Assembly (NCBI GenBank): GCA_030603345.1
Contig: JAUVXZ010000002.1
Span: 1 to 46,859 of the forward strand
Origin: Pseudomonadota bacterium
GTDB lineage: Bacteria; Desulfobacterota; DSM-4660; Desulfatiglandales; B25-G16
Length of the DNA: 46,859 nt
Reading direction: 5' to 3'
Shown here: piece after piece, positions 4,599 to 31,228 of the stretch
How positions within the stretch are numbered: position 1 is the first letter of the stretch
Layout of the letters: every line of letters begins with the position of its first letter
Notes under the pieces: model-generated
What the model saw: the letters and a program-made list of their open reading frames with translations, nothing else
Databases searched by the model: none
Told to the model about the DNA's origin: nothing
Program-made: the position numbers and the translations under genes

Positions 4599-4883
4599 AT
4601 GTGTTATCTCAGGGTTGATAATGAGAAGTGCGTTGGCTGCAAAACATGTGAAGTGGCATGCTCATATCATCACGAGAAGATTTTCAGTCCGAGGATAGCA
4701 AGCTTGGAGATTCGTAGGGAGGACAACGAAGTAGGGGTATCTATTATATTCTTTGAACACATGACGAGTGAAGAAAGGGGAAAACGCCTTCCCTGCGACC
4801 TTTGCAAAGGGGAGGCGTTGCCTTTGTGCGTAAAATACTGCCCGGTAGAAGCCATCACGGTACAAGAAGCAGGGTGTGGCTGA
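4599..4883 (+). CDS. Small 4Fe-4S ferredoxin-like protein, probable electron partner of the downstream AOR
   Basis: 94 aa with 'CVGCKTCEVAC' and 'CDLCKGEALPLCVKYCP'. Its TGA stop overlaps the next gene's ATG (TGATG at 4881-4885), suggesting translational coupling. Confidence 0.7.
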   Translation: MCYLRVDNEKCVGCKTCEVACSYHHEKIFSPRIASLEIRREDNEVGVSIIFFEHMTSEERGKRLPCDLCKGEALPLCVKYCPVEAITVQEAGCG

Positions 4884-6817
4884 TGAAAGAAAAACATTTC
4901 TCCTTGGGCGGAGAAATCCTGCGGGTTGACTTGACCTCGGGAGAGATTTGGACAGAGCCAACAGCAAAATATTCTGCAAAGCTCCTTGGTGGTAGAGGAG
5001 TAGATGAATGGATTCTGTACCATGAAGTCAAGCCTGCGGTGACTCCCTTTGATCCTGCCAATAGGCTGATATTTGGCACTGGAGTTTTGGTCGGGACGCT
5101 GGCACCGTGTGCCACTCGCCATAGCATAGAAGCCAAGAGCCCAGTAACTGGTGGGATTGGCTCAGGCAATTCCTGTGGTTTCTTTTCACCGGAGTTAAAG
5201 TTTGCTGGATATGATCATATAGTATTTCAAGGAAAATCGAGAGCACCCGTCTATTTATGGATAGACGATCAGCACGTGGAGATAAGGGACGCGTCGCACA
5301 TTTGGGGAAAGACAACTTGGGATACAGATGGCCTTATAAAAGAAGACATAGGGGATAAGCGTATTCAAATTGCTTGTATAGGACCCGGAGGCGAAAATCT
5401 GGTGAAGAGCGCATGCATAATAGCAAACCGGGCTCGGGCTGTAGGCAGATGTGGGCTTGGCGCGGTAATGGGCTCAAAGAACCTCAAGGCTGTGGCAGTC
5501 AGAGGTTCGGGGTCAATTGAGGTTGCACACCCTAATCGATTCATGGAAGAGGTGGACAAGGCTTGGGAGCGAGTGAGGGCGTCCCCCCGAGCTGATTCGC
5601 TCAGAACTTTCGGGACCTATGGTCGGGCACTTGCGTTAAACGAAGCATGTCTCTCGCCTGTGCGAAATTTCCAAGCCGATTTTTGGGATCCCCAAAAGCT
5701 GAAGAAAGCAACGCCAGATTTCTACAAAAATGAGTACGAGGTGAAGAGGCAGGGTTATTTTGCCTGCCCTCTTTACTGTAGTCACGTTTATCGTATCGAG
5801 CGTGGACCCTATGCTGGACTGGTATGCGAGGGCTTTGAATTCAATGATGTGTGGAATTTCCTGAATAGACTTGACATAGACTACCCACCAGCAGTCATAA
5901 AGCTGCATTCGTTATGTAACGAATATGGTTTGGACCAGGATAGCTCTTCATGCACTATTGCATGGGCTTTTGAGTGCTACCAGAGAGGAATCATTGCGGA
6001 GAAAGATACAGATGGTTTGAAGCTCGAATGGGGCGACCACTCAGTTGTAGTTGAACTTCTCAGGAAGATGGCCTATCGGGAAGGAATTGGGGAGATTCTT
6101 GCCGAAGGCTCAAAAAGGGCTTCAGAGTTAGTTGGCAAGGGCTCTGAAAAGTATGTCATTTGCTTGAAGGGCCAGGATTCTATGGAAGCAATGAGAGCGG
6201 CCAAGGGCTGGGCACTGGGCTGTTGTGTCTCTCCCAGAGGGGGAACACACACTCGGGGCGCAAATCTCGTTGAACTTTCACATGAGATTATTCCCCCTGA
6301 GGTTGCTCAGAAAGTGTGGGGAATCCCCAAAGTCGAGGGTCCCCTGTCTTATGAAAACAAGGCCAAGCTAGTAGTGTATTATGAAAGATTGCAAGCGATA
6401 CTAGACAGTTTAGGCGTTTGCATGTTTACCAGCACCTGGTGGTCGCCAGACCTGTTAGGCCCTGAAGAATATGCTCGCATCTATTCAGCCGCTACGGGTC
6501 GGGAAATAAGCGGAGAAGAACTCATGATAGTGGGCGAACGAATTCACAATGTTGAGAAGGCATTCAATACGCTCCACGCAAGCTTCGGCCGCGAGGATGA
6601 CTATCCACCCACAAGGTTTCTGGAAGAGCCCATAAGTTCTGGACCTTTAGAAGGAGAGCGCCTGCTTGCAGATAAATGGGGACAGATGCTCAACGAGTAT
6701 TATGAGCTGCATGGATGGGATAAGGAGACAGGCTGGCAAACTAGGAGGTGCCTAGAGGATCTGCAGCTTGGTGAAATAGCTGACGAACTTCAAGTGACCG
6801 GAAGGCTTATCAGCTAA
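4883..6817 (+). CDS. aor: Aldehyde:ferredoxin oxidoreductase family (tungstopterin) enzyme
   Basis: About 644 aa. The AOR N-domain look includes 'ILRVDLTSGEI', 'LLGGRGVDEWILY', 'GPGGENLVKSACI' and 'RCGLGAVMGSKNLKAVAVRG'. I place the start at the internal ATG at 4883, which is coupled to the ferredoxin stop. Confidence 0.85.
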   Translation: MKEKHFSLGGEILRVDLTSGEIWTEPTAKYSAKLLGGRGVDEWILYHEVKPAVTPFDPANRLIFGTGVLVGTLAPCATRHSIEAKSPVTGGIGSGNSCGFFSPELKFAGYDHIVFQGKSRAPVYLWIDDQHVEIRDASHIWGKTTWDTDGLIKEDIGDKRIQIACIGPGGENLVKSACIIANRARAVGRCGLGAVMGSKNLKAVAVRGSGSIEVAHPNRFMEEVDKAWERVRASPRADSLRTFGTYGRALALNEACLSPVRNFQADFWDPQKLKKATPDFYKNEYEVKRQGYFACPLYCSHVYRIERGPYAGLVCEGFEFNDVWNFLNRLDIDYPPAVIKLHSLCNEYGLDQDSSSCTIAWAFECYQRGIIAEKDTDGLKLEWGDHSVVVELLRKMAYREGIGEILAEGSKRASELVGKGSEKYVICLKGQDSMEAMRAAKGWALGCCVSPRGGTHTRGANLVELSHEIIPPEVAQKVWGIPKVEGPLSYENKAKLVVYYERLQAILDSLGVCMFTSTWWSPDLLGPEEYARIYSAATGREISGEELMIVGERIHNVEKAFNTLHASFGREDDYPPTRFLEEPISSGPLEGERLLADKWGQMLNEYYELHGWDKETGWQTRRCLEDLQLGEIADELQVTGRLIS

Positions 6818-6907
6818 AAATCATTACTTGCCTACGCGGATCAGCGGCGAATGTAACAGCACACTACCAACGTAGAACAGTTTTTGTTGTGAATCACAGA
6901 CCTGTTG

Positions 6908-6943
6908 AGTACGTATCGGTTTTGTATCGAGCCGATAAGTACT
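6908..6943 (+). terminator. Near-perfect 12-bp inverted repeat: candidate terminator after aor, or operator before the first PrpD-like gene
   Basis: AGTACGTATCGG-(12 nt)-CCGATAAGTACT, with 11 of 12 arm positions complementary. It lies about 90 nt after the aor stop and about 150 nt before the next start. No clear T-tract follows. Confidence 0.3.
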
Positions 6944-7094
6944 TCTATACAGTTAACTTGAAGCGAAAAAGATCAAATAATTCTGTGGGATGGGGACCAG
7001 TTTAGTGGGAGGAAGGATTCGCCCGATAATTGCGGCACAGAGAGTTGTACATCCAACCTAGCCCTTCGAAAGTGAATTGAGGAGGCGTTGGACA

Positions 7095-8486
7095 ATGAGT
7101 ATAGCACGAGAGCTCGCAAAGAGCGCAAACAGCTTGATCTTTGAAGATGTACCATCCGATGTGATCCACCAGACAAAACGCCTTGTGCTTGACACGCTTG
7201 GCTGCGCTATAGGCGGCTATAGGAGTGAGGCGAGTAGGATCATTCAGGAAGTCGTGAAAGAATTAGGTCATTCTGAGGAGGCAACAGTTTTCGGCAGCGG
7301 GCTGAGAACATCGTGCCTGAACGCCGCACTGGCTAATGGTGCCATGGTTCGCTACCTCGACTACAATGATACCGCCTTTATGATCCAGGGGGAGACCTAC
7401 AGAACCGGCTACCACCCCAGTGAGGTCATTCCCCCGATACTAGCGTTGGGCGAACGGCAACATTTGCCAGGAAAGAGCATCATAACAGCTATTAATTTGG
7501 GCTACGACCTATCGCTGGCCTTCCTGGAAGGTGTCATCGGCACGGGGATGGAGAAGAGGGGGTGGAATGGTGATACGAGGGGTGCATTTATAATGCCTCT
7601 CGTAGCCGGTAAAATCCTCGGCCTTGCTGAGGAGCAGATGGAAAGCGCAGTGGGCATAGCGGGTAGTTGCCATGCCGTGTTGGGCATCCTCGATACCCCA
7701 GCAGAAGAATATACTATGACGAAGAACATACGGTTCCCTATGGTGTCTTATGGGGGAATCTTGGCGGCCATGCTTGCCCAAAAGGGATTCACCGGTCCCG
7801 CCAGCATAATAGAGGGGCACGATGGCTTTGTTGAAGTCATCATGGGTGGAGACTATGATGTTGAAAGGCTATTAGGATTTAAGGGTAAGTTTGCTATCCG
7901 CGAGACCTGTATCAAGTCAATTATCGCTGACTTTTCCTCTCACGGTCATTTGACAGCGACGCTGACCCTTGCACGGGAACACGACATAAAGCCCGAGGAC
8001 GTTATCGAAGTCAGGATTACCACAAGCAAACGGTGTGCTGAGCACACTGGTGATCCGGTAAAAAAGTACCCAAAAAACAAGGAGACAGCTGACCATAGTT
8101 CCTATTACCTCACTGCCATTGCCATAATAGACCGCGAAATAGGGCCGGACCAATTCACCCCTGAAAAGTATAATGACCCTAAAGTGCGAGAACTCATTGA
8201 TAAGGTCGTCCTCCAAGGTGATCCCAAATTAGATAAATTTCGACCCGCTGGTATTTCGGAAATCATCACTAAGCAAGGCAAGAAGTATAGTCTTCGGGTG
8301 GACCATCCTAGAGGACACGCCCGCAATCCCATGACGGATGAAGAAGTTGTGGACAAATTCAAAAGCATGGCTTCAAAGTGCATGAGTGAAGACCATGTGG
8401 ATCAAGTCATCGACACCGTTTTTACTTTAGATAAGCTGGACGACATTGGAAAACTTAATAGGCTTATGGCCTTTAGAGACAGTTGA
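7095..8486 (+). CDS. MmgE/PrpD family protein, paralogue 1 (2-methylcitrate-dehydratase-like subtype)
   Basis: About 463 aa from the ATG at 7095 (GAGGAGG upstream). N-terminus 'FEDVPSDVIHQTKRLVLDTLGCAIGG', 'YLDYNDTAF', and C-domain 'KETADHSSYY'. Confidence 0.85.
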   Translation: MSIARELAKSANSLIFEDVPSDVIHQTKRLVLDTLGCAIGGYRSEASRIIQEVVKELGHSEEATVFGSGLRTSCLNAALANGAMVRYLDYNDTAFMIQGETYRTGYHPSEVIPPILALGERQHLPGKSIITAINLGYDLSLAFLEGVIGTGMEKRGWNGDTRGAFIMPLVAGKILGLAEEQMESAVGIAGSCHAVLGILDTPAEEYTMTKNIRFPMVSYGGILAAMLAQKGFTGPASIIEGHDGFVEVIMGGDYDVERLLGFKGKFAIRETCIKSIIADFSSHGHLTATLTLAREHDIKPEDVIEVRITTSKRCAEHTGDPVKKYPKNKETADHSSYYLTAIAIIDREIGPDQFTPEKYNDPKVRELIDKVVLQGDPKLDKFRPAGISEIITKQGKKYSLRVDHPRGHARNPMTDEEVVDKFKSMASKCMSEDHVDQVIDTVFTLDKLDDIGKLNRLMAFRDS

Positions 8487-8575
8487 AACAGATAGGCTGA
8501 GGTTCACCATTCGCTGGCATGAGCTTGCAAAGTAAGAGGTAATTGACACAGGTGTTTGATATAAGAATTTCGTTT

Positions 8576-8601
8576 AAGACAAAGTTTGTCTAACTTGTCT
8601 T
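8576..8601. promoter_or_regulatory. Palindromic AGACAAA-G-TTTGTCT plus an extra AACTTGTCTT arm, upstream of the CoA-ligase genes; candidate operator or weak hairpin
   Basis: There is a perfect 7-bp-arm palindrome at 8577-8591. The following AACTTGTCTT can pair with AAGACAA(A)GTT. The site is 67 nt upstream of the ATG at 8668. Confidence 0.2.
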
Positions 8602-8667
8602 TTGATTCGGCTGAGCTGCCGCTTACCACCCAGCTTCCGAATTGTTGAAATACTACGGAGATCACAT

Positions 8668-9951
8668 ATGGCAAGAATTTATGAATACCAGGGGAAAGAG
8701 ATGCTCGCAAAGGTAGGTATTCCTGTCCCCAAAGGGAGATGTGTAGAAAGTGCTGACGTGGCCAGAAATGCAGCCGATGATATCGGAAAGCCAGTTGTTG
8801 TAAAGGCCCAGGTTTGGGTGACCGGGCGTTTAAAAGCAGGAGGCATCAAATTCGCCAAAACGCCTGAGGAGGCTGAAAAGGCTGCCAAAGAGCTCATTGG
8901 TAGCGAGATTAAGGGGCTGATCGTAGGAAAGGTGCTGATTGAAGAGCAACTTGAGGTTGATAGGGAGCTTTATGTCGGCGTAATCGTGAGTAATTCATTC
9001 AAGGTAAAAGGACCAGTACTGATAGTGAGCAGTGAGGGAGGTGCATCTATTGAAGAGGTTTCTCAGAGAAATCCTGAGAGGATTGCTCGGTTGAATGTTG
9101 ACTACCTACAGGGTGTAGGATCTGAGGAGGCAAACCAATTGCTATCGAATGTATCTTTCAATGGCAGGGACTTGTCTAAAGAGCTAACTCACGAACTGGC
9201 AGAGGTTATTTCCAATGTCTATAAGGCCTTTACCCAATATGACGCCAGGGCTCTGGAAGTCAATCCTTTAGTCTTAACCAAGGACAACCGTATTATTGCC
9301 GCTGATTGCCATCTTACGCTTGATGATAACTCCGTGTTTCGGCATCCCGAGTTGGGCATAAAGGTGCCTCGTGACATGGACAGACCACCGACTGGGTTGG
9401 AACAGAGAGCCTGGATGACCATAGAAGAGGGCGATTATCGAGGAACAGGGTACTTCGCACAGATGGTAGCAAAAATAGAAGGCGACAGCTGGCTTGGGTT
9501 TCATGGCATAGGTGGTGGCGGCGCCATGCTCGGAGCCAGCGCATTTGTGGCACGGGGCTTTAAAATCGCCAACTATGCAGACACCAGTGGAGATCCTCCA
9601 GCCAGCAAAATCTACAGCGTGATTAAATACATCCTGTCACAACCCATTGACGGCTATGTCCTGATGGGGGCCACCCTTGCCAATCAGGAGCAATGGCATC
9701 ATGCTCATGCACTTGTGAAGGCGTTTAAAGAAGAGGCTGAAAACAGGCCAGGATTTCCTGTGATCATGCTGCTTGCAGGGAACAAGGAAGAGGAGGCGCA
9801 CGATATAATAAAGAGCGAATTTAAGGACTTGCCACTACGGTGGGAATTGTACGGCAGAGAGTATATTTACAATACAGATTTCATTGCAGATAGGGTGGAA
9901 GAGTTGGTTAAGGCCTATCAGATGGAGAGGCGCACGGCGCAGAAGGAGTAG
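8668..9951 (+). CDS. NDP-forming acyl-CoA synthetase beta-like (ATP-grasp) subunit; succinyl-CoA synthetase / malate thiokinase / citryl-CoA synthetase superfamily
   Basis: The N-terminus 'MARIYEYQGKEMLAKVGIPVPKG...VVVKAQVWVTGRLKAGGIKF' parallels SucC 'HEYQAK...VVKAQV..GGRGKAGGVK'. ATG at 8668 follows GGAG. At about 427 aa it is longer than a typical SucC. Confidence 0.8.
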   Translation: MARIYEYQGKEMLAKVGIPVPKGRCVESADVARNAADDIGKPVVVKAQVWVTGRLKAGGIKFAKTPEEAEKAAKELIGSEIKGLIVGKVLIEEQLEVDRELYVGVIVSNSFKVKGPVLIVSSEGGASIEEVSQRNPERIARLNVDYLQGVGSEEANQLLSNVSFNGRDLSKELTHELAEVISNVYKAFTQYDARALEVNPLVLTKDNRIIAADCHLTLDDNSVFRHPELGIKVPRDMDRPPTGLEQRAWMTIEEGDYRGTGYFAQMVAKIEGDSWLGFHGIGGGGAMLGASAFVARGFKIANYADTSGDPPASKIYSVIKYILSQPIDGYVLMGATLANQEQWHHAHALVKAFKEEAENRPGFPVIMLLAGNKEEEAHDIIKSEFKDLPLRWELYGREYIYNTDFIADRVEELVKAYQMERRTAQKE

Positions 9952-9958
9952 TGGTGCA

Positions 9959-10249
9959 ATGGCTGCGAATAGACTAGAGCTTGAAACAAGAAAGACTAAG
10001 ATCACTATTGACTACAGCCGGTGTCTTCCCGCAATGGAAAACACGTCAGATCCAGCCTGCAGATTTGCCTGTGTAAAAGCATGTCGATTATATGGCCGAA
10101 ATATCTTAAAAATTGAGGAGAATAGACCCGTGCTGGCAGTCAAGGACCCTGAAGAAATAAAAAGGTTGGATAATGAGTGTATTAGCTGTGAGTACAACTG
10201 CCAGCGGTATGGTGCTGGGTGTATCAGCATTGAAATCCCTTTGCAATAG
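9959..10249 (+). CDS. Small cysteine-rich (8 Cys) ferredoxin-like protein of unknown function
   Basis: About 96 aa from the ATG at 9959, preceded by AGGAG at 9944-9948. It has two Cys groups, 'C..(11)..CRFACVKAC' and 'CISCEYNCQRYGAGC'. It sits exactly between the beta-like and alpha-like ligase subunit genes. Confidence 0.6.
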   Translation: MAANRLELETRKTKITIDYSRCLPAMENTSDPACRFACVKACRLYGRNILKIEENRPVLAVKDPEEIKRLDNECISCEYNCQRYGAGCISIEIPLQ

Positions 10250-10281
10250 CGGAGGTAAGCTCTCGGTAGGAGATAGCTATT

Positions 10282-11187
10282 ATGCCAGTGTTGATTGATG
10301 AAAATACACGAATGCTTATCCAGGGTATTACTGGAAGGTTTGGGCAGGGTGTAGCCAGGCGTATGATAGAGGTGGGTTCCAAGGTAGTTGTTGGGGTTAC
10401 GCCGGGCCGGGGTGGTCAATCTGTTTGGGGCGTAGCGGTTTATGATACCGTGAAAGAAGCATTAGAAGCGGTTGGATCAGTGGATGCAGCTGTTACGGTC
10501 GTACCAGGTCCGGAGGCCAAGGGAGCAGTGATAGAGGCCTTTGAAGCAGGGATAAAAACAGTTCTGATGCGCGTAGAAAGGGTGCCTCTGCATGATTCCC
10601 TTGAGATCATTGCCCATGCCAAGAAACATGGGATAAGACTGATTGGCCCGGGTTCAGCAGGAGTAGTGAGCCCTGGAAAGGCTTCTTTGGGTGGGTTAGG
10701 CGGCTTTATGGGTTCTTCAGATTTGCCGAGAATAGCCTTCAAACCTGGCCGGATAGGTGTCATCTCGCGCAGTGGCGGGCAAACCTCTACCTTGAGCTGG
10801 GCTGTTTGCAGTGCTGGGTTTGGGATTAGCACAGCCGTTCATTTGGGTTCCGAGCCAGTTTTGGGAACAACATTGCCGGAACTGCTTCCTCTGTTTCAAG
10901 AAGATGACCAGACGGATGGAGTAGTGTATTTTGGGGAGATCGGAACCGTTATGGAAGAGGAGGCCACAGAGGTGATTAAAGCCGGAGGTTATACAAAGCC
11001 GTTGGTGGCATACATAGCAGGCAAAGGTCTTCCTTCAGGATTACGGTTTTCTCATGCCAGTGCTATTGTAGAAGGTGGGAAAGGAACAGCAGAAGGGAAG
11101 ATTATGGCATTTAGAGAGGTTGGAGCCCATGTTGTTGACAGACCGGAAGATATCGGGCCTGCTTGCCAAAGGGTTTTCGGAAAATAG
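10282..11187 (+). CDS. NDP-forming acyl-CoA synthetase alpha-like (CoA-binding, phosphohistidine) subunit
   Basis: 'LIQGITGRFG' is a CoA-binding Rossmann-like N-terminus. 'ISRSGGQTSTL' matches SucD 'SRSGTLTYE'. 'SHASAIVEGGKGTAEGK' matches the SucD phosphohistidine loop 'GHAGAI', and the His is retained. Confidence 0.8.
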   Translation: MPVLIDENTRMLIQGITGRFGQGVARRMIEVGSKVVVGVTPGRGGQSVWGVAVYDTVKEALEAVGSVDAAVTVVPGPEAKGAVIEAFEAGIKTVLMRVERVPLHDSLEIIAHAKKHGIRLIGPGSAGVVSPGKASLGGLGGFMGSSDLPRIAFKPGRIGVISRSGGQTSTLSWAVCSAGFGISTAVHLGSEPVLGTTLPELLPLFQEDDQTDGVVYFGEIGTVMEEEATEVIKAGGYTKPLVAYIAGKGLPSGLRFSHASAIVEGGKGTAEGKIMAFREVGAHVVDRPEDIGPACQRVFGK

Positions 11188-11222
11188 CCAGTCGATAGCG
11201 GTTTAGTTGCGGGAGGACTTTG

Positions 11223-12182
11223 ATGGTGAGAATACTGAGATCAATGCTGTATGTTCCGGCAAACAGCTGGCGAATGATCATTACTGCTGTGTCTGAGGGA
11301 GCAGATGCGGTTATCTTAGACTTGGAAGACGGGTGTCCAATGGCTGAAAAGGAGACAGGCAGAGTTTTTGCCAGGGATTCCCTCTCTATGTTAAAGGAGC
11401 AAGGCCTTGAAGTTTATGTCCGGGTAAATTCCCTTGAGACAGGCCTACCGGAGATAGATATCAGCTATGTGGTGACTCAGGGGCTTGACGGCATTATGCT
11501 CGCCAAGACAGAGTCAAAAGAGGACATCATCAGTCTTGATAAGCTTATAGAAAAAGAAGAGCAGAAAAAGGGACTCGAGTTAAACAGTATTACTCTCATT
11601 GCTCTTATTGAAACTCCGAGGGGGATTCTGAACCTACCCCAGATTATTGCTGCTGGCCAACGCATAGAAGCTGTAGCCTTCGGTGCAGGAGATTTCTCGC
11701 GAGAGATGGGCGCTGGGATGGGGGTCACTAAGTTATCGCCTGAGGAGTATTTTCCCATGGTTCTTCATGCACGATCGAGCATCGCCATGGCAGCAAGGGC
11801 AGCAGGCATTCAAGCCATAGATACACCCTTTTTTGGGTTGGTCATAGATCTTGAGGGGCTTGCAAGAGAATCGGAAAAAGCCAAGCTGCTGGGATTTTCA
11901 GGGAAGCAAGTGACTCATCCTCGGCATGTGGCTGTAGTCAATGAGTGTTTTTCACCGGCTAAAGAAGATGTTGATTTTGCTAAACAAGTCGCAGAGGCCT
12001 ATAACGCTGCAAGAGCAAAAGGATTGGGAGCTACAACTTTGGGTGGGAAGATGATCGACTATGGTTCATTCAAGCGGGCAGAGGGTCTTTTGTCATTGGC
12101 TGAGGCGATAGAAAAAAAAGAGAAGAAGAAGTCAGAAGAACAATCACGGGGGAGGTCCGATTTCAGCGACTCCCCGGTGTGA
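11223..12182 (+). CDS. HpcH/HpaI aldolase - citrate lyase beta (CitE)-like acyl-CoA lyase (malyl-/citramalyl-CoA lyase type)
   Basis: 'SMLYVPANSWRM' and 'AVILDLEDG' are typical of the CitE family. The ATG at 11223 is 6 nt after GGAGG. The protein has an unusual Lys/Glu-rich extended C-terminal tail, '...AIEKKEKKKSEEQSRGRSDFSDSPV'. Confidence 0.8.
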   Translation: MVRILRSMLYVPANSWRMIITAVSEGADAVILDLEDGCPMAEKETGRVFARDSLSMLKEQGLEVYVRVNSLETGLPEIDISYVVTQGLDGIMLAKTESKEDIISLDKLIEKEEQKKGLELNSITLIALIETPRGILNLPQIIAAGQRIEAVAFGAGDFSREMGAGMGVTKLSPEEYFPMVLHARSSIAMAARAAGIQAIDTPFFGLVIDLEGLARESEKAKLLGFSGKQVTHPRHVAVVNECFSPAKEDVDFAKQVAEAYNAARAKGLGATTLGGKMIDYGSFKRAEGLLSLAEAIEKKEKKKSEEQSRGRSDFSDSPV

Positions 12183-12413
12183 ATACGCCTAAGGAACAGA
12201 CGTTCATTATCTGCAGGCCAACTGGAAGCCACGCATTTGGGATGGTCGATTGTATGGGCAGTGGGGGGGCAGATGTATACTCACAGTCTGCTCCGGGTCT
12301 TATAGTGCGTGCAATTAGGTTCAAAAGGCAGACCGGATGGTTTTTGATATCGAAGGCAATCCACCCAGCCCTCATAGCGGTCTTTGATTCTTCGGTTTAC
12401 TATGTAGGAATCG

Positions 12414-13151
12414 ATGAGATTGGAAGGAAAAAAAGTGATTGTTACTGGCGCCAATGGAGGTGTGGGACAGGCGATTTCCCGGCTGTTCGAGCAGGAAGGG
12501 GCAGCTGTAGCAATGATTGACCGGGTGACCGCTTCCTGTGAATTGTTGGCCCAGGAAATGAGGCGTAAGAGAAGGAAATCCCTCGTAATCCAAGCAGATT
12601 TGAGCCGGGTCGGAGGCATCAAGGAATTGGTGAAAAAGGTAAAGGAAAATTTCGGGGGGATCGATATCCTTGTGAGCAATGCTGGAGTAGTGGAACGACA
12701 TACCCTTGAAGAGATAAGGCCCAAAGACTGGGACTGTACTTTTAATGTGAACCTCAAGGCTGCGTTTTTTGCCATCCAGGCCGTGGTCCAATACATGAGA
12801 GCCCAGAAGGACGGGAGGATTGTTTGTATTGGATCGAGGGCCAGCAAGGACGGAGGGATGAATGTTGGAATTAGTTATGCCGCATCTAAAGCGGGCCTTG
12901 AGCTCCTGGTAAAGAGACTGTCAAGGGATATGGGGTCTTGGGGAATCCGCATTAATTTGATTCGACCCGGCGCCATTGACACTCCCTTTCTTGATGATTT
13001 AAGTCTGGAACAGAAGGAGGACATACGGAAGGCGATTCCCCTTGGGCGATTGTGTTCACCTTGGGAAGTGGCCCAGGCTGCTCTCTTCTTAGCTTCGGAC
13101 GAATCGAGTTTTATTTCTGGAGCCATACTCGATATCGCTGGAGGTCTTTGA
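12414..13151 (+). CDS. Short-chain dehydrogenase/reductase (FabG-like SDR)
   Basis: 'VTGANGGVGQAI' is the TGxxxGxG motif, 'SNAG' is present, and the catalytic 'YAASKAG' gives YxxxK. 245 aa. Confidence 0.85.
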   Translation: MRLEGKKVIVTGANGGVGQAISRLFEQEGAAVAMIDRVTASCELLAQEMRRKRRKSLVIQADLSRVGGIKELVKKVKENFGGIDILVSNAGVVERHTLEEIRPKDWDCTFNVNLKAAFFAIQAVVQYMRAQKDGRIVCIGSRASKDGGMNVGISYAASKAGLELLVKRLSRDMGSWGIRINLIRPGAIDTPFLDDLSLEQKEDIRKAIPLGRLCSPWEVAQAALFLASDESSFISGAILDIAGGL

Positions 13152-13277
13152 TGCTCACTCTAAAACTGGCAAGCGTGTCGGTAGACTGCAGCGATCAGGC
13201 TGAGTGCTACGGTTAATAAAGGATTAAGGCTGGAGTAAAAGAATCACTGAAAACAGATTTTGTGGAGAAGGTTGGCT

Positions 13278-14429
13278 ATGTTTTTCAATATAGCGCTGTA
13301 TGTTTCGCTGATCATTTTCATCATTGGATTGATTTATAAATTATGGACATGGTTCCACAAAGATGTCGGAATGGGCGAGAAAGAGATTTCAGCCTACAAA
13401 AGGCTTTTCTCTGCTATCAAAGGAATACTGGCGACTGTGTTTAGTGGAAAAATCGTTACCCTTATTAAGGTTTTTGTGCTTGATGTCATCTTGCAATTAC
13501 GAATCCTAAAGGACAGTGAGGACCGCATTCTCTGGATCATGCATATACTTATTTTTGTCGGCTTTATTCTGCTTCTCCTTATGCATGCTTTGGGCAATAT
13601 TGTTACTTCCTATCTTTTCCCTGAGTATCAATCCACGCTGAATCCTTTCTTGTTTCTGCGGAACCTCTTTGGCCTATTCGTTATCGTCGGGTTGCTGCTG
13701 GCTATTGTCCGGAGGGCCTCGCTCAAAAGGGGTCAGTTCAGGACAACTGGTATGGACTATTATGTTATTGTGATCTTAGCCCTAATCGTTATTTCAGGTT
13801 TCCTGCTTGAAGCAGCAAAGATAAGCTCCTATTCCGCCTACCAAAGAATGGTGGAAGACTATGCTTCAGCGACAGAGGACAGTGAAGCTCAAGCTTTAGA
13901 GGCTTTTTGGGTAGTGAACTTTGGAGTCGTGTCTCCCAAAACACAGATGCCTTTTTCAGCTGAAATGCTGGTGCAGGGAAAGGAATTGCACGAGATGAGC
14001 TGTGCCTCCTGCCATTCCAGGCCTCAATCGGCTTTTATTTCTTACGGAGTGAGCAAGGCTATAAAGTCCATTGCTCTAAGAGTGGATAGGGTACGGGTCG
14101 ACACCTTGCTGTGGTATATTCACTTCCTGTCCTGCTTTGTCGGCCTCGCCTATCTCGCTTTTAGCAAAATGTTTCATGTTTTTGCTACACCGGTTAGCCT
14201 TTTGATTAATGCAGTAACAGAAATTGGAAAAGAAAGCCCTGCCAATGTAGCCACAAGACAGATGATCGAACTTGACGGGTGCAGCCATGGCGGGATCTGC
14301 CATATGGAATGTCCTGTCTGGAGAAAAAGACAGGAAAGAATAAACAGGTCGAAACCATTTGGTCCGATGCTGGGCTACGTTAGTGAGAAGGACTGGAAGG
14401 AGCTGGGGAACCGTTTCTATGAGGAGTAG
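13278..14429 (+). CDS. Integral membrane redox subunit, NarI/DsrM-like di-haem cytochrome b type, with an extra CxxCH motif and a C-terminal Cys cluster
   Basis: About 6 predicted TM helices. His pairs occur in helices 'WIMHILIFVGFILLLLMHAL' and 'WYIHFLSCFVGLAYLAFSKMFH'. A soluble insert carries 'CASCH', and the C-terminus carries 'CSHGGICHMECP'. ATG at 13278 follows GGAGAAGG. Confidence 0.6.
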   Translation: MFFNIALYVSLIIFIIGLIYKLWTWFHKDVGMGEKEISAYKRLFSAIKGILATVFSGKIVTLIKVFVLDVILQLRILKDSEDRILWIMHILIFVGFILLLLMHALGNIVTSYLFPEYQSTLNPFLFLRNLFGLFVIVGLLLAIVRRASLKRGQFRTTGMDYYVIVILALIVISGFLLEAAKISSYSAYQRMVEDYASATEDSEAQALEAFWVVNFGVVSPKTQMPFSAEMLVQGKELHEMSCASCHSRPQSAFISYGVSKAIKSIALRVDRVRVDTLLWYIHFLSCFVGLAYLAFSKMFHVFATPVSLLINAVTEIGKESPANVATRQMIELDGCSHGGICHMECPVWRKRQERINRSKPFGPMLGYVSEKDWKELGNRFYEE

Positions 14430-14583
14430 ACTCGGGTCGTTCTAGAAACTTGTTCGAAAAGCGGGGGATGCATTTTGATAAACAATAGAGGGGAATTGAG
14501 TAAGGTTGTTATTGTTTGGGTACCGCAGACTGCTGCGTGCGATAGCACTTACTGGCATATGACAATCTCATCATCCGGGGAGA

Positions 14584-17157
14584 ATGAGGATGATTCAAGA
14601 TAGGCAACACATAAGGAGAGGCAAAGACGTCTGGGTACCCACTGTATGCGCAGGCTGTTACAACTGCTGTGGCGTACGGGTGCATCGGGTGAATGGAAAA
14701 GTCGTGGAAGTTGTCGGCGATCCCAAGGCGTCAAATTCAAAGGGGTATATCTGTGCAAAAGGTATTTGCCGAGCTCTGGACCTTCATCACCCTTCTCGAG
14801 TCGTCAAACCCCTGAAGCGTACAAACCCTGAAAAGGGGATTGGTGTGGACCCCAAGTGGGCGGAGATCTCATGGGAAGAAGCACTGGACACCATTACCGA
14901 GAAACTGGGTAAGGTCAGGGAGGAAGATCCACGCAAACTCATTATCTCTCACTTTGATATATCGGCTTATAAACCCACTATCGCCTTTGCTTTGGCTTAT
15001 GGGACGGTGAACTTTATTTGGAATAGAGCAGACTACTGCGGTTCTGCTTCCCACCCTGTTTGGCTCATCACCAATGGAGCCTTGAATTCCGAAATAGATT
15101 TTGAGTACTGCAAATATTTCATCTTGTGGGGGACCCAGCTAGGTCATGTCGTGAACACGATACCACTTGTCTCGGGTCATGCTCTGGCAGAGCGAAGACG
15201 ACAAGGTGCCAAACTTGTAGTAGTTGACCCGTTTTGCTCGAACGCTGCTGCTAAAGCTGACGAATGGCTACCACTCAAGCCAGGGACGGATGGGGCGCTT
15301 GCTTTGGCCATGTTGAACATAATGGTTTACGAACTGGGAATTTATGACGTGGATTTCCTCAAGCACCAGACAAATGGTCCCTACCTTGTTCAGCCAGATG
15401 GTCACTATTTGAGGGACGAAGAATCAGGCGAGCCCCTTGTCTGGGATCTTAGTGATGGCAGAGCCAAACCTTATGACGCTGATGACCTGAAAGACCCGGC
15501 CATCGAGGGTAATTACGAGGTGGCCGGAGGGAGTTACAGACCTGCCTTTCACGTGCTGAAAGATCACCTTGGTCAGATTGATGTGGACGAGATGTCAAGG
15601 ATCTGTACCATCCCAATCGAGAGAATTAGGAGTATCACCAAAGAGTTCTGTGAAGCAGCGAGAATAGGCAGTACCATCGAAATCGAAGGGCACAAACTCC
15701 CGTTAAGGCCAGCTGGCATTGATTTCAAGAGGGGCGCCGCAGCCCACAAGGGTGGATTTAATACTTGTTTTGCTATTCACTTGATTAATCTTCTTGTTGG
15801 AGCAATTGACGTGCCGGGAGGACAGAGAGGCGTAAACCCGCAGGGGCCCTATTGGAGCGCAGAAACAGGCCCAGATGGGCTCCTCGTGCCCTCTGATGTT
15901 ATTACAAAATACAATAAGCCCTACCCAGGCAGGCAAGCCAAGATTCCAGAGCATCTGGACCTACAGGAGCTTTTCCCGGCGGCTTTGTTTACTCGAGGGT
16001 TATACCCCTGGGGAATCGATAATCCGGAAGTGTTTGGAATTCCTTACAAGCCGGAAGTCATGCTTCACTCCCGTTCAAATCTGATGTTAAACAGCCACAA
16101 CCCTCATGCAATGGCCGAAACTCTGAAGAAGCTTAAGTTCCAGGTCTCCATGGTGATGTTCATTGATGAAACCGCAGAGTTCGCTGACATCATCCTGCCA
16201 GATGCCCATGAATTTGAGAGATGGGATATTTTCCCTGCCAATGATCCTTATGCTTTCATAGCGCCCGGTCCAGGTGAGTGGTATTGGTTGATGAGACAAC
16301 CTGTTGTTGAACCTCCCGAGGGGACTAGACCGTTTCTCGAGGTCTACTTTGAACTCGCCGAGAGGCTGGGCATTTTGGACGAGATGTACCAAATCGGTAA
16401 TGACTCCTGGGTAATAGATGAACAGTACAGATTTGAAAAAGGTAAAGAGTACACCATCAGGGACATAGCGGAAAGGCAAGCTAAGACAATCCTTGGGCCT
16501 GACTTCAGCTGGGACCGGCTTCAGGAGACATCATGCATGGTCAGCCGGAAAAAGACCATTGAGGAGGCCTTCCCGCGGATGTTTTTCAAATCTCGGGTCC
16601 CGATATATCTAGAATACTTGCTCAAACACGGGAAAGATGTAAAGGCGGTTACCGATGAATTGGGTCTTGAGTGGGACTTCACCCCTTACAGCCCGGTGCC
16701 GGTATGGATCCCCTGTGAAGCCCACGCTGATGATGAAGGATACGATCTGATTGTCACGAATGGTAAGGTCCCTACTCATCAGTTTTCTGTCACTACAGAG
16801 AATCTGTGGATAGACGAGATTGCCGTCCGTAATCCCTATACTTACAGCGTCATGATCCACACTTCTGTGGCAGAAAAGAAAGGCTTAGAGACTGGGGATA
16901 AGGTGTGCGTAGAATCGAGGTACGGAAAGGTTACCGGGCGGCTCATGGTTACAGAGCTTATTCACCCTGAATGTATAGGGACGTGTGGCACGTTTGGACA
17001 TTGGGCTAAAGGAATGCCTATTTCACTGAATAAAGGTGTCTCACATAATCAACTCTTGCCGCCACCGAGCTTAAAGAGAATAGATACCTTAACTGGCCAG
17101 ATAGATACGTGTATTAGGGCCAAAATCTATAAAGCAGGGGAAAGAGACGATGCCTAG
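14584..17157 (+). CDS. Molybdopterin (Mo/W-bisPGD, DMSO-reductase superfamily) oxidoreductase catalytic subunit, no Tat signal
   Basis: 857 aa with an N-terminal FS0 motif, 'VCAGCYNCCGV...ICAKG'. The overall layout is COG0243-like. There is no hydrophobic signal after 'RRGKD'. The start could be the second ATG at 14590. Confidence 0.8.
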   Translation: MRMIQDRQHIRRGKDVWVPTVCAGCYNCCGVRVHRVNGKVVEVVGDPKASNSKGYICAKGICRALDLHHPSRVVKPLKRTNPEKGIGVDPKWAEISWEEALDTITEKLGKVREEDPRKLIISHFDISAYKPTIAFALAYGTVNFIWNRADYCGSASHPVWLITNGALNSEIDFEYCKYFILWGTQLGHVVNTIPLVSGHALAERRRQGAKLVVVDPFCSNAAAKADEWLPLKPGTDGALALAMLNIMVYELGIYDVDFLKHQTNGPYLVQPDGHYLRDEESGEPLVWDLSDGRAKPYDADDLKDPAIEGNYEVAGGSYRPAFHVLKDHLGQIDVDEMSRICTIPIERIRSITKEFCEAARIGSTIEIEGHKLPLRPAGIDFKRGAAAHKGGFNTCFAIHLINLLVGAIDVPGGQRGVNPQGPYWSAETGPDGLLVPSDVITKYNKPYPGRQAKIPEHLDLQELFPAALFTRGLYPWGIDNPEVFGIPYKPEVMLHSRSNLMLNSHNPHAMAETLKKLKFQVSMVMFIDETAEFADIILPDAHEFERWDIFPANDPYAFIAPGPGEWYWLMRQPVVEPPEGTRPFLEVYFELAERLGILDEMYQIGNDSWVIDEQYRFEKGKEYTIRDIAERQAKTILGPDFSWDRLQETSCMVSRKKTIEEAFPRMFFKSRVPIYLEYLLKHGKDVKAVTDELGLEWDFTPYSPVPVWIPCEAHADDEGYDLIVTNGKVPTHQFSVTTENLWIDEIAVRNPYTYSVMIHTSVAEKKGLETGDKVCVESRYGKVTGRLMVTELIHPECIGTCGTFGHWAKGMPISLNKGVSHNQLLPPPSLKRIDTLTGQIDTCIRAKIYKAGERDDA

Positions 17158-17752
17158 GTATGGCATGGTAATTGATTTGAAAAAGTGCATTGGTTGCTAC
17201 TCTTGCGTGGTTGCATGCAAGGCTGAGCACAACACACCAAATGGCCTCTTTCAGACCACTGTTCTTGAAAAGGAGCTCGGTAGATTTCCCAACTCAATAC
17301 GAGTCTTTATGCCGGTCTTGTGTAACCATTGCGAGGAAGCAACCTGCGTAGATGTTTGCCCAACAGAGGCAACATACAAGAGGGATGACGGCGTGGTCAT
17401 GATTGATTTTGACAAATGTATCGGATGCGGCGCCTGCATCGAGCATTGCCCTTACCACGCCCGTGATTTTGTTGTCGATGATAGAACAGTCTTCCCTGAC
17501 GGAAAGACCGTCTTCGTAAAGCCTGTCTATCAAAAGATACCAAAGAAGGTGGCGCTCAAGTGTGATTTTTGCTTCTATAGAGTGGAAAAGGGTCTTTTAC
17601 CTGCGTGCGTAGAAGTGTGCCCCACTGCAGCGAGAATTTTTGGGGACGTGGAAGACACCAAGAGTGAGGTCCACGAACTGATGGAAAAGTACAGCGCTTG
17701 GACCATGTTGCCCGATGAGGGGACAAAGCCCCAAGTTTACTATATTGGATAG
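17150..17752 (+). CDS. 4Fe-4S ferredoxin-type electron-transfer (beta) subunit (DmsB/PsrB/NrfC-like)
   Basis: Starts 'MPRYGMVIDLKKCIGCYSCVVACK'. Four Cys groups: 'CIGCYSCVVAC', 'CNHCEEATCVDVCP', 'CIGCGACIEHCP' and 'CDFC...CVEVCP'. It overlaps the alpha subunit by 8 nt. Confidence 0.9.
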   Translation: MPRYGMVIDLKKCIGCYSCVVACKAEHNTPNGLFQTTVLEKELGRFPNSIRVFMPVLCNHCEEATCVDVCPTEATYKRDDGVVMIDFDKCIGCGACIEHCPYHARDFVVDDRTVFPDGKTVFVKPVYQKIPKKVALKCDFCFYRVEKGLLPACVEVCPTAARIFGDVEDTKSEVHELMEKYSAWTMLPDEGTKPQVYYIG

Positions 17753-17770
17753 CCAATATCTTCAATGAAA

Positions 17771-17830
17771 CAAACTGGCAGAGGGGCTTTTGTTATTGGC
17801 TGAGGCCATTGAGGAGAAGGAAAAAGAGTA
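17771..17830 (+). pseudogene. Relic of the 3' end of a citE-like gene (duplicate of 12071-12130)
   Basis: A column alignment of 17771-17810 against 12071-12110 gives 34 of 40 identical nt. The relic translates as 'LAEGLLLLAEAIEEKEKE*', against the intact CitE-like 'RAEGLLSLAEAIEKKEKKK'. An in-frame stop lies just upstream and there is no homology further 5'. Confidence 0.6.
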
Positions 17831-17849
17831 GTAACCAAGGAAGTGTGAT

Positions 17850-22283: not shown

Positions 22284-22531
22284 CAAGAAAAGAAATTGGG
22301 TCTGAGAGGTCTACTTCACCGAGGGATACGGATCGATCGAGTTTCAGTTTCTGCGTGTAGGCCGAGTTCTTTAGGTTGAGGCGGCAAGCCAGGCCGGTAA
22401 ATGTTACCCTTGAGGCACAATTGCAAAAGCCACAAAGCCTCTTCATCTTAATGTGCTCCTTTCTCCTATCATGGTTAAAGCCCACGTCGATGTTGTAGTA
22501 ACCATCAAAAAACCGAATGGAGCAGTATGAC

Positions 22532-25383: not shown

Positions 25384-25472
25384 GCAATAAGGTGTTTGAA
25401 GGTACAATTCAGGCGGAGGCTTCGGTCCCTTCTTTGTCAGATCCGAATAACTAGCAACTCCCCGAATTTTGA

Positions 25473-25652
25473 CTAATCGAGCAATTCTGTATATTGGCTC
25501 GGCCGTCTGTCCCTCCAGTAAGGGATTCTTTTTCTTGCTTCCACGACCTCATCTAGATCAATCTCGGCTCCAACGACCTCTTCCTTATCGGGGGGGCCTG
25601 TTACCAGTATCTCACCGCCTAGTGGATGGATAACCATAGATCGCCCCGTATT
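25473..25652 (-). pseudogene. Relic of the C-terminal ~59 codons of a carbon-nitrogen hydrolase (nitrilase-superfamily) gene
   Basis: The minus-strand frame reads 'NTGRSMVIHPLGGEILVTGPPDKEEVVGAEIDLDEVVEARKRIPYWRDRRPSQYTELLD*', preceded by TAA-TGA stops. This matches the C-terminal architecture of the intact C-N hydrolase at 44818-45675 ('GDSIICDPSGKIIASGEERENEVVSAVINLEHVDSARIESGVFRDLRPEIYHRL'). It is too short and Met-less to appear in the ORF track. Confidence 0.6.
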
Positions 25653-25766
25653 TCATTACTGGCCTCCCTTCGAAATTGGCATTAAGAACCTTAACATCGT
25701 TTCAGGAAGCGCGTCAAACTGAGGCCTCGTTGAGTTTCTTATGGTTGGCGCATTCCCGTATTTCCA

Positions 25767-26468: not shown

Positions 26469-26570
26469 CTTCTAACCCCCTTCATTTTATTGAGATATTA
26501 CCTCGAACCCTCTTACCTCTGAGTGAATAAATCCATGGCCGCAGAATCGTCGCATAACCAAAAACAAAGG

Positions 26571-28564: not shown

Positions 28565-28578
28565 GCTCTTCCTCCATT

Positions 28579-29973: not shown

Positions 29974-30021
29974 GGCATACCCTTCCTTATCAAATATTGC
30001 AAGACTGTCTGCGTCCTATCT

Positions 30022-31140: not shown

Positions 31141-31228
31141 TCACATGCACCTCCTTGTGGCCCTTTCTGCTTGATGGCATAAAACTGGAGTGTAGAGATT
31201 TAAAACCTCTCCGTATTTTGCAATGTAT

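Follow-up and report, generated by a model that had tools for sequence, protein, structure and literature searches.

A conserved four-gene unit that may join an ADP-forming acid-CoA ligase to a CitE-type lyase

The stretch of DNA analyzed here (the window: 46,859 nt of contig JAUVXZ010000002.1, assembly GCA_030603345.1, whose positions are used throughout) contains genes resembling both subunits of succinyl-CoA synthetase, followed by a gene for a CitE/HpcH-type lyase. As an earlier, sequence-only reading of the locus had noted, they lie in an island that looks catabolic, not in a tricarboxylic acid cycle operon. What would such a ligase activate, and would its product be the substrate of the lyase? 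We found that the genes belong to a four-gene unit (beta, Cys, alpha, CitE) present in both bacteria and archaea. From its anatomy, conservation, gene fusions, family placement and retained catalytic motifs, all read directly from the sequences, we infer a chemistry, a substrate class and a direction: with a probability of about 0.58, the unit would encode an ADP-forming ligase whose product, a CoA ester of the citryl or citramalyl type, would be cleaved by the CitE-type lyase.

Gene order and conservation of the unit

Five close-packed open reading frames (ORFs) occupy positions 7077–12182 of the + strand; beta, Cys, alpha and CitE form the core.

7077–8486, + strand: MmgE/PrpD-family protein, PrpD1 (Pfam MmgE_PrpD_N, E 8e-56; MmgE_PrpD_C, E 9e-40)
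8668–9951, + strand: beta-like ligase subunit, 427 aa (Pfam ATP-grasp_2, E 5e-54)
9959–10249, + strand: eight-cysteine protein, 96 aa, conserved between beta and alpha
10282–11187, + strand: alpha-like ligase subunit, 301 aa (Pfam CoA_binding, E 9e-20)
11223–12182, + strand: CitE/HpcH-type lyase, 319 aa (Pfam HpcH_HpaI (PF03328), E 3e-47)

The core ORFs are co-oriented, each with its own ribosome-binding site and, except for the Cys ORF, a strong domain match; the domain scores of beta, alpha and CitE are far above chance. Beta starts at ATG 8668 behind a GGAG site, its protein begins MARIYEYQGKEMLAK, and it ends at 9951. The Cys ORF begins 8 bases past the beta stop, and its AGGAG overlaps the 3′ end of beta. 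The likely start of CitE is ATG 11223, after GGGAGGA, the mechanical ORF start being TTG 11220. PrpD1 is associated with the unit, as the likely supplier or modifier of the acid substrate, and stands outside the strict four-gene core. A promoter and terminator scan of 6800–13300 returned counts that match shuffled sequence and therefore does not inform the limits of the operon.

The sequence-only reading had correctly located the beta-, alpha- and CitE-like genes, which lie on the + strand, as the ORFs and Pfam matches confirm, and beta is indeed longer than a typical SucC (427 aa versus 388 aa in E. coli). Its picture of a two-subunit ligase in three parts captured three real genes and was inaccurate in one respect, because a fourth ORF, the 96-aa, eight-cysteine one at 9959–10249, lies between beta and alpha. 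Similarly, it had placed CitE immediately downstream, and CitE does follow alpha at 11223; PrpD1, directly upstream of beta at 7077–8486, had gone unmentioned.

Relatives were collected by scanning one genome per GTDB species with beta (loci are labeled L plus a number, and P plus a number denotes a database protein). Beta is 50–92% identical in 44 loci and ~44% in a 45th, L051. The order beta–Cys–alpha–CitE is kept in 33 of the 33 species-representative loci from metagenome-assembled genomes (MAGs) with 3.5 kb or more of sequence beyond the start of beta, a set that spans Desulfobacterota, Chloroflexota, Myxococcota, Spirochaetota, Bathyarchaeia, Heimdallarchaeota and Thermoplasmata. Carriers on the Desulfobacterota side are Syntrophobacterales, Desulfatiglandaceae, Desulfarculaceae, Desulfomonilaceae and Desulfobacterales; the others are Anaerolineales, Dehalococcoidia, Myxococcota, Spirochaetota, Bathyarchaeia, Heimdallarchaeota and Thermoplasmata. 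Because this gene order is held in every one of the 33 loci and across two domains of life, the ligase appears functionally tied to the lyase, a coupling that the sequence-only reading had proposed.

Genuine SucC genes in the same genome scan are at most 39% identical to beta, whereas betas partnered with CitE are at least 50% identical, which leaves a gap between the two groups. Thousands of metagenomic relatives of beta exist at ~75% identity, which, where they have any name, are called only 'succinyl-CoA synthetase beta'. The sequencing runs that contain the window locus are marine sediment and cold-seep metagenomes; our search of runs found it in DNA metagenomes only, the single RNA run listed holding none. 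The unit is common in anoxic marine sediment and cold-seep metagenomes, in bacteria and in archaea.

Relationships of the ligase, the cysteine-rich protein and the lyase

Beta consists of an N-terminal ATP-grasp domain and a putative C-terminal acid-binding domain of the type found in ATP-citrate lyase (ACL) and citryl-CoA synthetase (CCS). The Pfam model Citrate_bind (PF16114) matches at 27.9 bits, barely over its cut-off of 26.8, and Ligase_CoA gives no match. Beta scores 230.8 against the NCBIfam model of SucC (NF001913, cut-off 370) and 169.5 against that of MtkA (NF010647, cut-off 604). Among solved structures it matches Thermus SucC at 196 bits, H. thermophilus CcsA at 152 and C. limicola AclB at 124. 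The motifs GGGG and IANYA(D/E)xSGDP and an RPPTxxE insert are common to beta, CcsA and AclB, and a WHHAH motif at beta 343–347 is invariant. Identities are 28–37% to SucC and MtkA (28.5% to Paracoccus MtkA), 32.5% to CcsA and 30% to AclB. We placed beta in a neighbor-joining (NJ) tree, a simple distance tree without bootstrap support, together with E. coli SucC, Paracoccus MtkA, Thermus SucC, CcsA, AclB and the SucC genes from the genome scan. In it the family and L051 form a clade of their own, outside the SucC/MtkA group, CcsA and AclB.

Alpha has Ligase_CoA and Succ_CoA_lig matches in addition to its CoA-binding domain. It scores 260.9 against NCBIfam SucD (NF004230, cut-off 336), and its best match in the PDB is archaeal SucD (251 bits; CcsB, 166). 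It is ~37% identical to Paracoccus MtkB, no closer than to SucD. The phosphohistidine loop reads RFSHASAI, with the catalytic His kept and with the SHASAI in place of GHAGAI that had been picked out before, and SHAS(A/S)I is found in 41 of 41 family alphas that are partnered with CitE. Compared with SucD motifs, GHAGA has become SHASA, GPNCPG has become GPGSAG, SRSGTL has become SRSGGQT and GIGGDP has become HLGSEP. A 9-residue insertion that is not in SucD aligns gap-free and length-matched with AclA and human ACLY. A Pfam scan of the 301 residues found CoA_binding and Ligase_CoA domains and no fused citrate-synthase-homology module.

Every complete locus has the Cys protein encoded between beta and alpha. 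Its cysteines (C22, C34, C38, C42, C74, C77, C81 and C88) are spaced C-x11-C-x3-C-x3-C ... C-x2-C-x3-C-x6-C, which is non-canonical compared with the CxxCxxCxxxCP of ferredoxins, and no Pfam family, Fer4 included, or NCBIfam family matches it. Beta and Cys form a single ORF of 491–545 aa in L036, L038, L040, L041, L051, P0243, P0277 and P0299. A profile of the Cys protein found only 64 representatives among 1.84e9 proteins, mostly stand-alone and ~60–130 aa long; in nine of the nine inspected matches of 163–541 aa, a set that leaves out the weak 2530-aa P0292, the domain forms the C-terminal end of a beta-like protein or of a piece of one. This pattern argues strongly that the Cys protein is a subunit or domain of the ligase, probably its third component, and it possibly binds an Fe-S cluster.

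The lyase also matches Pfam C-C_Bond_Lyase (E 4e-13). Aligned with E. coli CitE, CLYBL and Mcl, it keeps DLED, VRVN, IET, GxxD (GAxD), HP and the lid motif GKMID, so that the Mg-binding and catalytic residues of the HpcH/HpaI TIM barrel, including the C-terminal lid Asp, are retained. The top-ranked NCBIfam profile is citE (TIGR01588; 210, cut-off 443); scores were 150.7 for RipC_Ccl (NF038242, cut-off 375) and 75 for the haloarchaeal Mcl (NF041626, cut-off 500). The best PDB match is CLYBL (132 bits), with Mcl at 120. The nearest annotated plasmid gene (tblastn, 40%) comes from Peptoclostridium acidaminophilum, where it encodes the beta subunit within a citD-E-F set; the lyase is 39% identical to this subunit. 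Methylaspartate mutase and methylaspartase genes adjoin the set, as expected around a citramalate lyase. Identities to other relatives are 37% for the CitE of E. coli and S. equi, 35% for CLYBL and 31–34% for Mcl. Set against Mcl, Ccl/CLYBL and CitE in a tree, the comparison suggested by the sequence-only reading, the lyase forms its own clade next to the acyl-carrier-protein-type citramalate and citrate lyase beta subunits, with Mcl on another branch. This placement weakly favors a citramalyl- or citryl-type substrate over malyl-CoA.

A sister lineage combines a related ligase with a different lyase, one resembling citryl-CoA lyase (CCL).

L051 (Ignavibacteria), 10001–17133: beta–Cys fusion, alpha, CCL-like lyase, HDIG protein, aconitase, isocitrate-dehydrogenase-family protein
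L093, 6001–12165: beta–Cys fusion (P0299), alpha, citrate-synthase-fold CCL, two amidohydrolases

Beta of L051 is 44.7% identical to that of the window and beta of L093 37.6%; alpha of L051 is 48.7% identical, with the loop RFSHAGAI. The 258-aa lyase of L051 has H. thermophilus citryl-CoA lyase as its best solved match (6hxp_A, 167 bits, E 4e-48), and the 265-aa citrate-synthase-fold protein of L093 passes the NCBIfam citryl-CoA lyase subfamily (245.7, cut-off 245). The next gene in L093 encodes a 501-aa cyclic amidohydrolase that is 51.6% identical to the amidohydrolases of L004 and L017 (486 and 473 aa), which flank CitE-type modules; upstream lies a divergently transcribed CoA_transf_3 gene. 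The sister lineage therefore has the same pathway context and an alternative lyase. The CitE fold and the CCL fold are both known to cleave citryl thioesters. Because related ligases pair with a lyase of either fold, the ligase product would be citryl-CoA-like and cleaved directly, and this dual pairing is the best single argument for such a product. L051 and L093 themselves look like a CCS/CCL-type system that has not been described before and that lies beyond Aquificae and Leptospirillum.

Proposed mechanism, neighboring genes and alternatives

We propose that beta, alpha and the Cys protein together make up an acid-CoA ligase that is ADP-forming and belongs to the succinyl-CoA synthetase/citryl-CoA synthetase/ATP-citrate lyase superfamily. 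ATP in the ATP-grasp domain of beta would phosphorylate the conserved His of the RFSHASAI loop of alpha; the phosphoryl group would pass to a carboxylate held in the ACL/CCS-type C-terminal domain of beta, and CoA would then displace it. The product would be a 3-hydroxy-3-carboxyacyl-CoA of the citryl- or citramalyl-CoA type, which the Mg-dependent lyase would cleave directly into acetyl-CoA (or a close homologue) and a 2-oxoacid: oxaloacetate from citrate, pyruvate from citramalate. The hydroxy-acid probably comes from substituted succinates, maleates or aconitate-like acids by way of PrpD enzymes and fumarate-reductase-like flavoproteins, and class-I fumarase-like enzymes, adjacent in relatives, are also candidate makers of a 2-hydroxy di- or tricarboxylate. 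As a physical part of the ligase, the Cys protein might serve as a structural module built on Fe-S or Zn, as the place where the lyase docks, or as a redox switch.

Domain scans of the window ORFs found no acyl-CoA dehydrogenase, enoyl-CoA hydratase, MaoC protein or CoA-transferase, and the same acyl-CoA families are absent among the annotated neighbors in CitE-type relative loci, the CoA_transf_3 gene of L093 belonging to the sister lineage. Because the conserved neighborhoods contain no acyl-CoA dehydrogenase, hydratase or CoA-transferase, the simplest assumption, and the one made by the sequence-only reading, is that the ligase product would be the lyase substrate. None of the 39 window ORFs scanned for the partner families CitD, CitF, CitC, CitX and CitG matched any of them.

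Which acid is activated can be narrowed only in part. Citrate or a close C6/C7 analogue is possible, on the strength of the ACL/CCS features, the CCL-partnered sister lineage, the citE profile ranking first and the neighbors resembling TcuA and cis-aconitate decarboxylase (CAD). Citramalate is a comparably tentative candidate, suggested by the nearest lyase relative, the lost Arg pair described below, the fumarase- and Sdh-like neighbors and the C5-dicarboxylate precedents. Malate is a poor candidate, and the remaining probability goes to some other substrate.

The neighborhood is rich in enzymes that could make such acids. The rows below give the other MmgE/PrpD-family genes of the window and one flavoprotein gene.

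17850–19208, + strand: MmgE/PrpD-family protein, PrpD2 (Pfam E 2e-67 and 3e-40)
19434–20888, + strand: soluble flavoprotein of the fumarate-reductase/flavocytochrome-c type, FAD1 (Pfam FAD_binding_2, E 2e-55)
20925–22283, 22517–23965, 24007–25383 and 39488–40942, + strand: MmgE/PrpD paralogs
28579–29973, − strand: MmgE/PrpD paralog

Among solved structures, PrpD1 matches cis-aconitate decarboxylase at 108 bits, IDS epimerase at 90 and PrpD at 47, and 20 of 36 species loci have its ortholog (66–89% identity) as the gene just before beta. The nearest PDB match of PrpD2 is the B. subtilis IRG1 homolog (144 bits). Orthologs of PrpD2 directly follow CitE in many relatives; in the window PrpD2 is ~5.7 kb downstream, with SDR and molybdoenzyme genes between. 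A PrpD-family gene stands directly 3′ of CitE in 13 of 27 loci and is present in 23 of the 26 loci longer than 12 kb. Characterized MmgE/PrpD enzymes all act on free 2-substituted succinates via an enolate (PMC12290011). FAD1 scores 266 against the NCBIfam model of flavocytochrome c (cut-off 285) and 158 against TcuA (cut-off 369); orthologs with 60–75% identity follow PrpD2 in L004, L011, L015, L017, L019, L022, L025–L027, L030 and L032.

In related Desulfobacterota these genes make up a recurrent operon, which runs from a cyclic amidohydrolase and a GntR/UTRA regulator through PrpD1, beta and Cys to alpha, CitE, PrpD2, a flavocytochrome-c/TcuA-like flavoprotein and an ABC transporter. Near the unit in archaea are genes for MFS transporters, amidohydrolases and PrpD proteins. 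The window island includes a branched-chain-type ABC uptake system, a tungsten aldehyde:ferredoxin oxidoreductase (AOR), an SDR, two fumarate-reductase-like flavoproteins and a GntR/UTRA regulator. Two loci carry, after the unit, fumarase-like alpha and beta genes and SdhA/SdhB-CCG-like genes, the SdhB and CCG parts being fused.

L035 (Desulfobacteraceae MAG), 5886–11562: DUF1847 gene after the fumarase-like pair
L037 (Desulfobacteraceae MAG), 8402–18444: DUF1847 gene before beta

In L037 the unit is also preceded by an Asp/Glu-racemase-family gene; maleate isomerase belongs to the same family.

Several further features of the neighborhood are recorded here. Seven MmgE/PrpD paralogs in 46.9 kb is an exceptional density, which suggests that a range of substituted succinates or maleates is handled by a set of hydratases, isomerases or decarboxylases. 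L036 shares its CitE-type module locus with a second SucCD-like pair (4880–8418, − strand) that lies beside another PrpD-family gene and an Sdh-like set; its beta (33% identity) carries a GGGGAS/GGNP C-domain like that of CCS, and its alpha (42%) has the loop RFGHAATI. The combination of PrpD with a CCS-like ligase may recur. Positions 13260–17752 encode a membrane protein similar to NarI/QmoC, a molybdopterin oxidoreductase similar to PhsA and a 4Fe-4S protein similar to DsrO/TtrB; near the unit elsewhere, L049 has all three genes, L031 the membrane and molybdopterin genes, and L020 the NarI-like gene. An operon on the − strand (27584–37433) starts with a cytochrome-b/Fer4 protein, PrpD6 and an isocitrate/homoisocitrate-dehydrogenase-family protein. 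Next come an aconitase-family pair of the LeuCD/HacAB type, an HDIG protein of 178 aa and class-I fumarase-like alpha and beta; the last two genes encode an SdhB-like Fe-S protein and a flavoprotein resembling SdhA/TfrA. The set of HDIG, aconitase-family and isocitrate-dehydrogenase-family genes also follows the L051 ligase, where the aconitase is one 644-aa ORF and the dehydrogenase is 68% identical. Gene orientation flips from + to − at ~25400–26500, where the sign of the GC skew changes too. A small Fer4 ORF (4599–4883) overlaps the mechanical TTG start (4802) of the tungsten-type AOR in the 4599–6817 region, and the true AOR start is probably further downstream.

The region 41243–45675 carries an octopine/opine-dehydrogenase-family gene on the − strand and, on the + strand, a hydantoinase/dihydropyrimidinase-like amidohydrolase (344 bits, cut-off 393), and a CN-hydrolase, followed by a further ABC permease, a set that hints at a nitrogen-containing substrate. 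As pure speculation, maleimides derived from tetrapyrroles, hematinic acid for example, might be opened by a cyclic imidase, hydrated by a PrpD-type hydratase and passed through ligase and lyase to propionyl-CoA and 2-oxoglutarate; on this speculation, the enzyme set fits a pathway of the hematinic-acid type.

Could the pair simply be a housekeeping succinyl-CoA synthetase with a CitE-like neighbor by chance? SucC and SucD are its best overall sequence and fold matches, and relatives are auto-annotated 'succinyl-CoA synthetase beta subunit'. However, both subunits fall below the SucC and SucD equivalog cut-offs and belong to a separate clade with an identity gap (at least 50% within the family, 44.7% for L051, at most 39% for SucC). 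They show GHAGA to SHASA, CPG to SAG and ACL-like indels, they come with an obligatory extra Cys subunit and invariant synteny with the lyase, and L036 holds a second SucCD-like pair in the same locus. A housekeeping SucCD, which we consider highly improbable, was rejected on the cut-offs, the separate clade, the altered motifs, the Cys subunit and the lyase synteny. The sequence-only reading had likewise held the pair not to be housekeeping, and the branching check agrees with it: an NJ clade of its own, scores under the cut-offs and altered active-site motifs. A different possibility is that the acid activated is not hydroxylated (succinate, itaconate, methylsuccinate or tricarballylate) and that CitE acts only after further steps encoded elsewhere, or as a thioesterase. 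SucCD activates itaconate in a pathway that CLYBL/Ccl closes (PMC12290011), CLYBL is the best solved-structure match of our lyase, and the flavoprotein resembles enoate reductases and TcuA. We nevertheless judge such an indirect couple improbable: neither the window nor the annotated neighborhoods of relatives contain an itaconyl-/mesaconyl-CoA hydratase or an acyl-CoA dehydrogenase, and the sole CoA-transferase in them is the divergent gene upstream in L093 of the sister lineage. Moreover, CitE adjoins alpha in 33 of 33 loci, a CCL-type lyase takes its place in the sister lineage, and the lid Asp needed for lyase chemistry is retained. The itaconate route from SucCD through Ich to Ccl, which the sequence-only reading had thought a match, was rejected as stated; it needs an itaconyl-CoA hydratase, of which there is none, no hydratase or CoA-transferase is conserved nearby, and its enzymes are not the closest relatives.

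The two remaining alternatives keep the direct link between ligase and lyase and change the acid or the direction. An analogue of malate thiokinase and malyl-CoA lyase would interconvert malate, malyl-CoA, and acetyl-CoA plus glyoxylate, and could in one variant work like a 'malate synthase' that conserves ATP and removes the glyoxylate released by the neighboring allantoinase/hydantoinase-like amidohydrolases. The gene logic equals that of mtkAB–mcl, a cyclic amidohydrolase of the allantoinase/dihydropyrimidinase superfamily recurs beside the unit, Mcl is among the best solved-structure matches of the lyase (120 bits), and L035 and L037 carry fumarase-like and Sdh-like genes after the unit. 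Yet beta and alpha are no nearer to MtkA and MtkB (28.5% and 37%) than to SucCD, the NCBIfam scores are far from the cut-offs (MtkA, 169.5 versus 604; Mcl, 75 versus 500), and in the lyase tree the nearest neighbors are beta subunits of citrate and citramalate lyase, with Mcl elsewhere; a bulkier acid resembling citrate is indicated by the indels of ACL/CCS type and by the sister lineage with its CCL partner. We therefore think malate chemistry unlikely, and of the comparison with this enzyme pair drawn in the sequence-only reading the activate-then-cleave gene logic survives, whereas MtkAB and Mcl are not the closest relatives. Alternatively, CitE could condense acetyl-CoA with a 2-oxoacid and the ligase could free the hydroxy-acid while making ATP. 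The reversibility of ADP-forming ligases and CitE-type lyases is established biochemistry, and a reversed ATP-citrate lyase gives substrate-level phosphorylation in Desulfobacter postgatei. Near-zero reaction energies are tabulated in PMC13147460. The carriers are energy-limited anaerobes of marine sediment and cold seeps, and the window has aconitase-family, isocitrate-dehydrogenase-family, fumarase-like and Sdh-like genes. We give this reverse direction little credence: the GntR/UTRA regulator, the uptake ABC transporter, the amidohydrolases and the many PrpD paralogs suggest substrate-inducible catabolism, not a central cycle, and the conserved genes beside the unit include neither a 2-oxoacid:ferredoxin oxidoreductase nor any other partner from a central cycle.

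A number of observations also weigh against the activation and direct cleavage of a citryl- or citramalyl-type acid that we prefer. As to citrate itself, ACLY T348 aligns with beta E341 and the 'RR' of ACLY and CCS (R378/R379) with L367–L368; in the ACLY–citrate structures these ACLY residues bind citrate. Because they are replaced in beta, the acid pocket appears ACL-like in architecture and not in detail. The numbering of T348 and R378/R379 was checked in PMC9504748. The top overall sequence matches of beta and alpha are still SucC and SucD, and the lyase is 31–40% identical to citrate lyase, citramalate lyase, CLYBL and Mcl alike, distances so nearly equal that they do not separate substrates. 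ADP-forming ligases are reversible, so that flux could run either way. For beta, AlphaFold worked from a shallow alignment of 12 sequences, and the resulting model is of low confidence (pLDDT 65.6) and too poor for viewing the binding pocket; a fold search with it gave the same order as the sequence search (SucC, CcsA, ACLY). The AF2 model of the Cys protein is likewise of low confidence (pLDDT 66.6), and Foldseek gave no significant match to it in the PDB (best E 0.19), the weak top matches including Fe-S ferredoxin-like subunits. The cysteine set is partly lost in some members, the second set being gone in L036, L037 and L039 and the fourth Cys being replaced by Asp in several, including L028, L029 and L033, which makes an essential redox function unlikely for all members. 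Finally, all loci that carry the unit come from uncultured MAGs.

Comparison with known systems

ATP-dependent activation followed by cleavage is already known from ACL, CCS/CCL and Mtk/Mcl. What is new here is a distinct ligase clade with an obligatory Cys-rich subunit, its CitE-fold lyase partner and its wide spread in uncultured anaerobes of both domains. In the published literature on such gene combinations we found no description of a beta–Cys–alpha–CitE unit. A 2026 survey lists only ACL and CCS/CCL as systems of ATP-dependent citrate cleavage (PMC13147460), and itaconate-fermenting bacteria are unknown according to the literature (PMC12290011). If citrate- or citramalate-type acids are the substrates, the unit would supply a missing step in the anaerobic breakdown of branched and polycarboxylic acids and would bear on the evolution of ACL from SucCD-like ancestors. 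Metabolic reconstructions would change as well, the genes now being annotated 'succinyl-CoA synthetase' and 'citrate lyase beta'. A more far-reaching proposal, which we regard as rather doubtful, is that the clade, with either a CitE- or a CCL-type lyase, is a third system for ATP-dependent cleavage of citrate or its analogues, next to ACL and to the CCS/CCL of Aquificae and Leptospirillum, and has a redox-coupling Fe-S subunit; its users would be uncultured Desulfobacterota, Chloroflexota, Bathyarchaeia and Asgard archaea of sediments. It might then stand at the end of an anaerobic pathway for polycarboxylates from N-heterocycles or cyclic imides (opened by an amidohydrolase, hydrated by MmgE/PrpD enzymes) or act as a reversible, ATP-conserving equivalent of citrate synthase.

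Among characterized systems, CcsAB with Ccl of H. thermophilus (PDB 6HXQ, 6HXP) likewise works in two steps, with an ADP-forming ligase and a stand-alone lyase. The C-domain of beta shares with it GGGG, ANxxDxxGxPP, the RPPTxxE insert and a Pfam Citrate_bind match, and L051 and L093 use a CCL homolog. Unlike it, the unit lies outside the CcsA branch (32.5% identity), has a CitE TIM-barrel lyase and not one of the citrate-synthase fold, adds a Cys subunit, reads 'LL' for the 'RR' of CCS and ACL and SHASA in its loop, and has a catabolic context, not that of the reductive tricarboxylic acid cycle. ACL (AclAB in Chlorobium, ACLY in animals) shares with the unit its superfamily and the chemistry of ATP, acid and CoA followed by cleavage; the ~9-residue insertion of alpha is length-matched in AclA and ACLY, and beta has IANYA(E/D)xSGDP as in AclB. 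However, the 301-aa alpha does not carry the citrate-synthase-homology module, identity to AclB is 30%, and cleavage would fall to a separate CitE-type lyase.

SucCD is the best overall match in sequence and fold, with an ATP-grasp beta and a CoA-binding alpha that has the catalytic His, whereas the unit fails the curated cut-offs and differs by its altered motifs, third subunit and linkage to a lyase. MtkAB with Mcl of the serine cycle also joins a SucCD-like pair to a clustered lyase of the CitE superfamily (on a Paracoccus plasmid) in the same activate-then-cleave logic. It differs in that identities are 28.5% to MtkA and 37% to MtkB, Mcl lies on the far side of the lyase tree and scores are far under the cut-offs; the unit also has no C1-assimilation gene context and has the extra Cys subunit. 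The beta subunits of citrate and citramalate lyase (CitDEF) are the closest lyase relatives found (39% and 37%), with the same catalytic motifs. Here, in contrast, the window has no CitD, CitF, CitC, CitX or CitG, the lyase stays under the TIGR01588 cut-off (210 versus 443), and the thioester expected is a CoA ester from an ATP-dependent ligase. Finally, itaconate and C5-dicarboxylate degradation (Ict or SucCD, Ich, Ccl/CLYBL, the MmgE/PrpD-family methylsuccinate isomerase and the itaconate reductase IrdA) shares with our locus a CitE-type lyase, MmgE/PrpD proteins and an enoate reductase-like flavoenzyme (PMC12290011). The unit differs from it in having no itaconyl-CoA hydratase, CoA-transferase or acyl-CoA dehydrogenase, in its RipC/Ccl score of 150.7 versus 375, and in the dedicated three-part ligase by which it would activate its acid.

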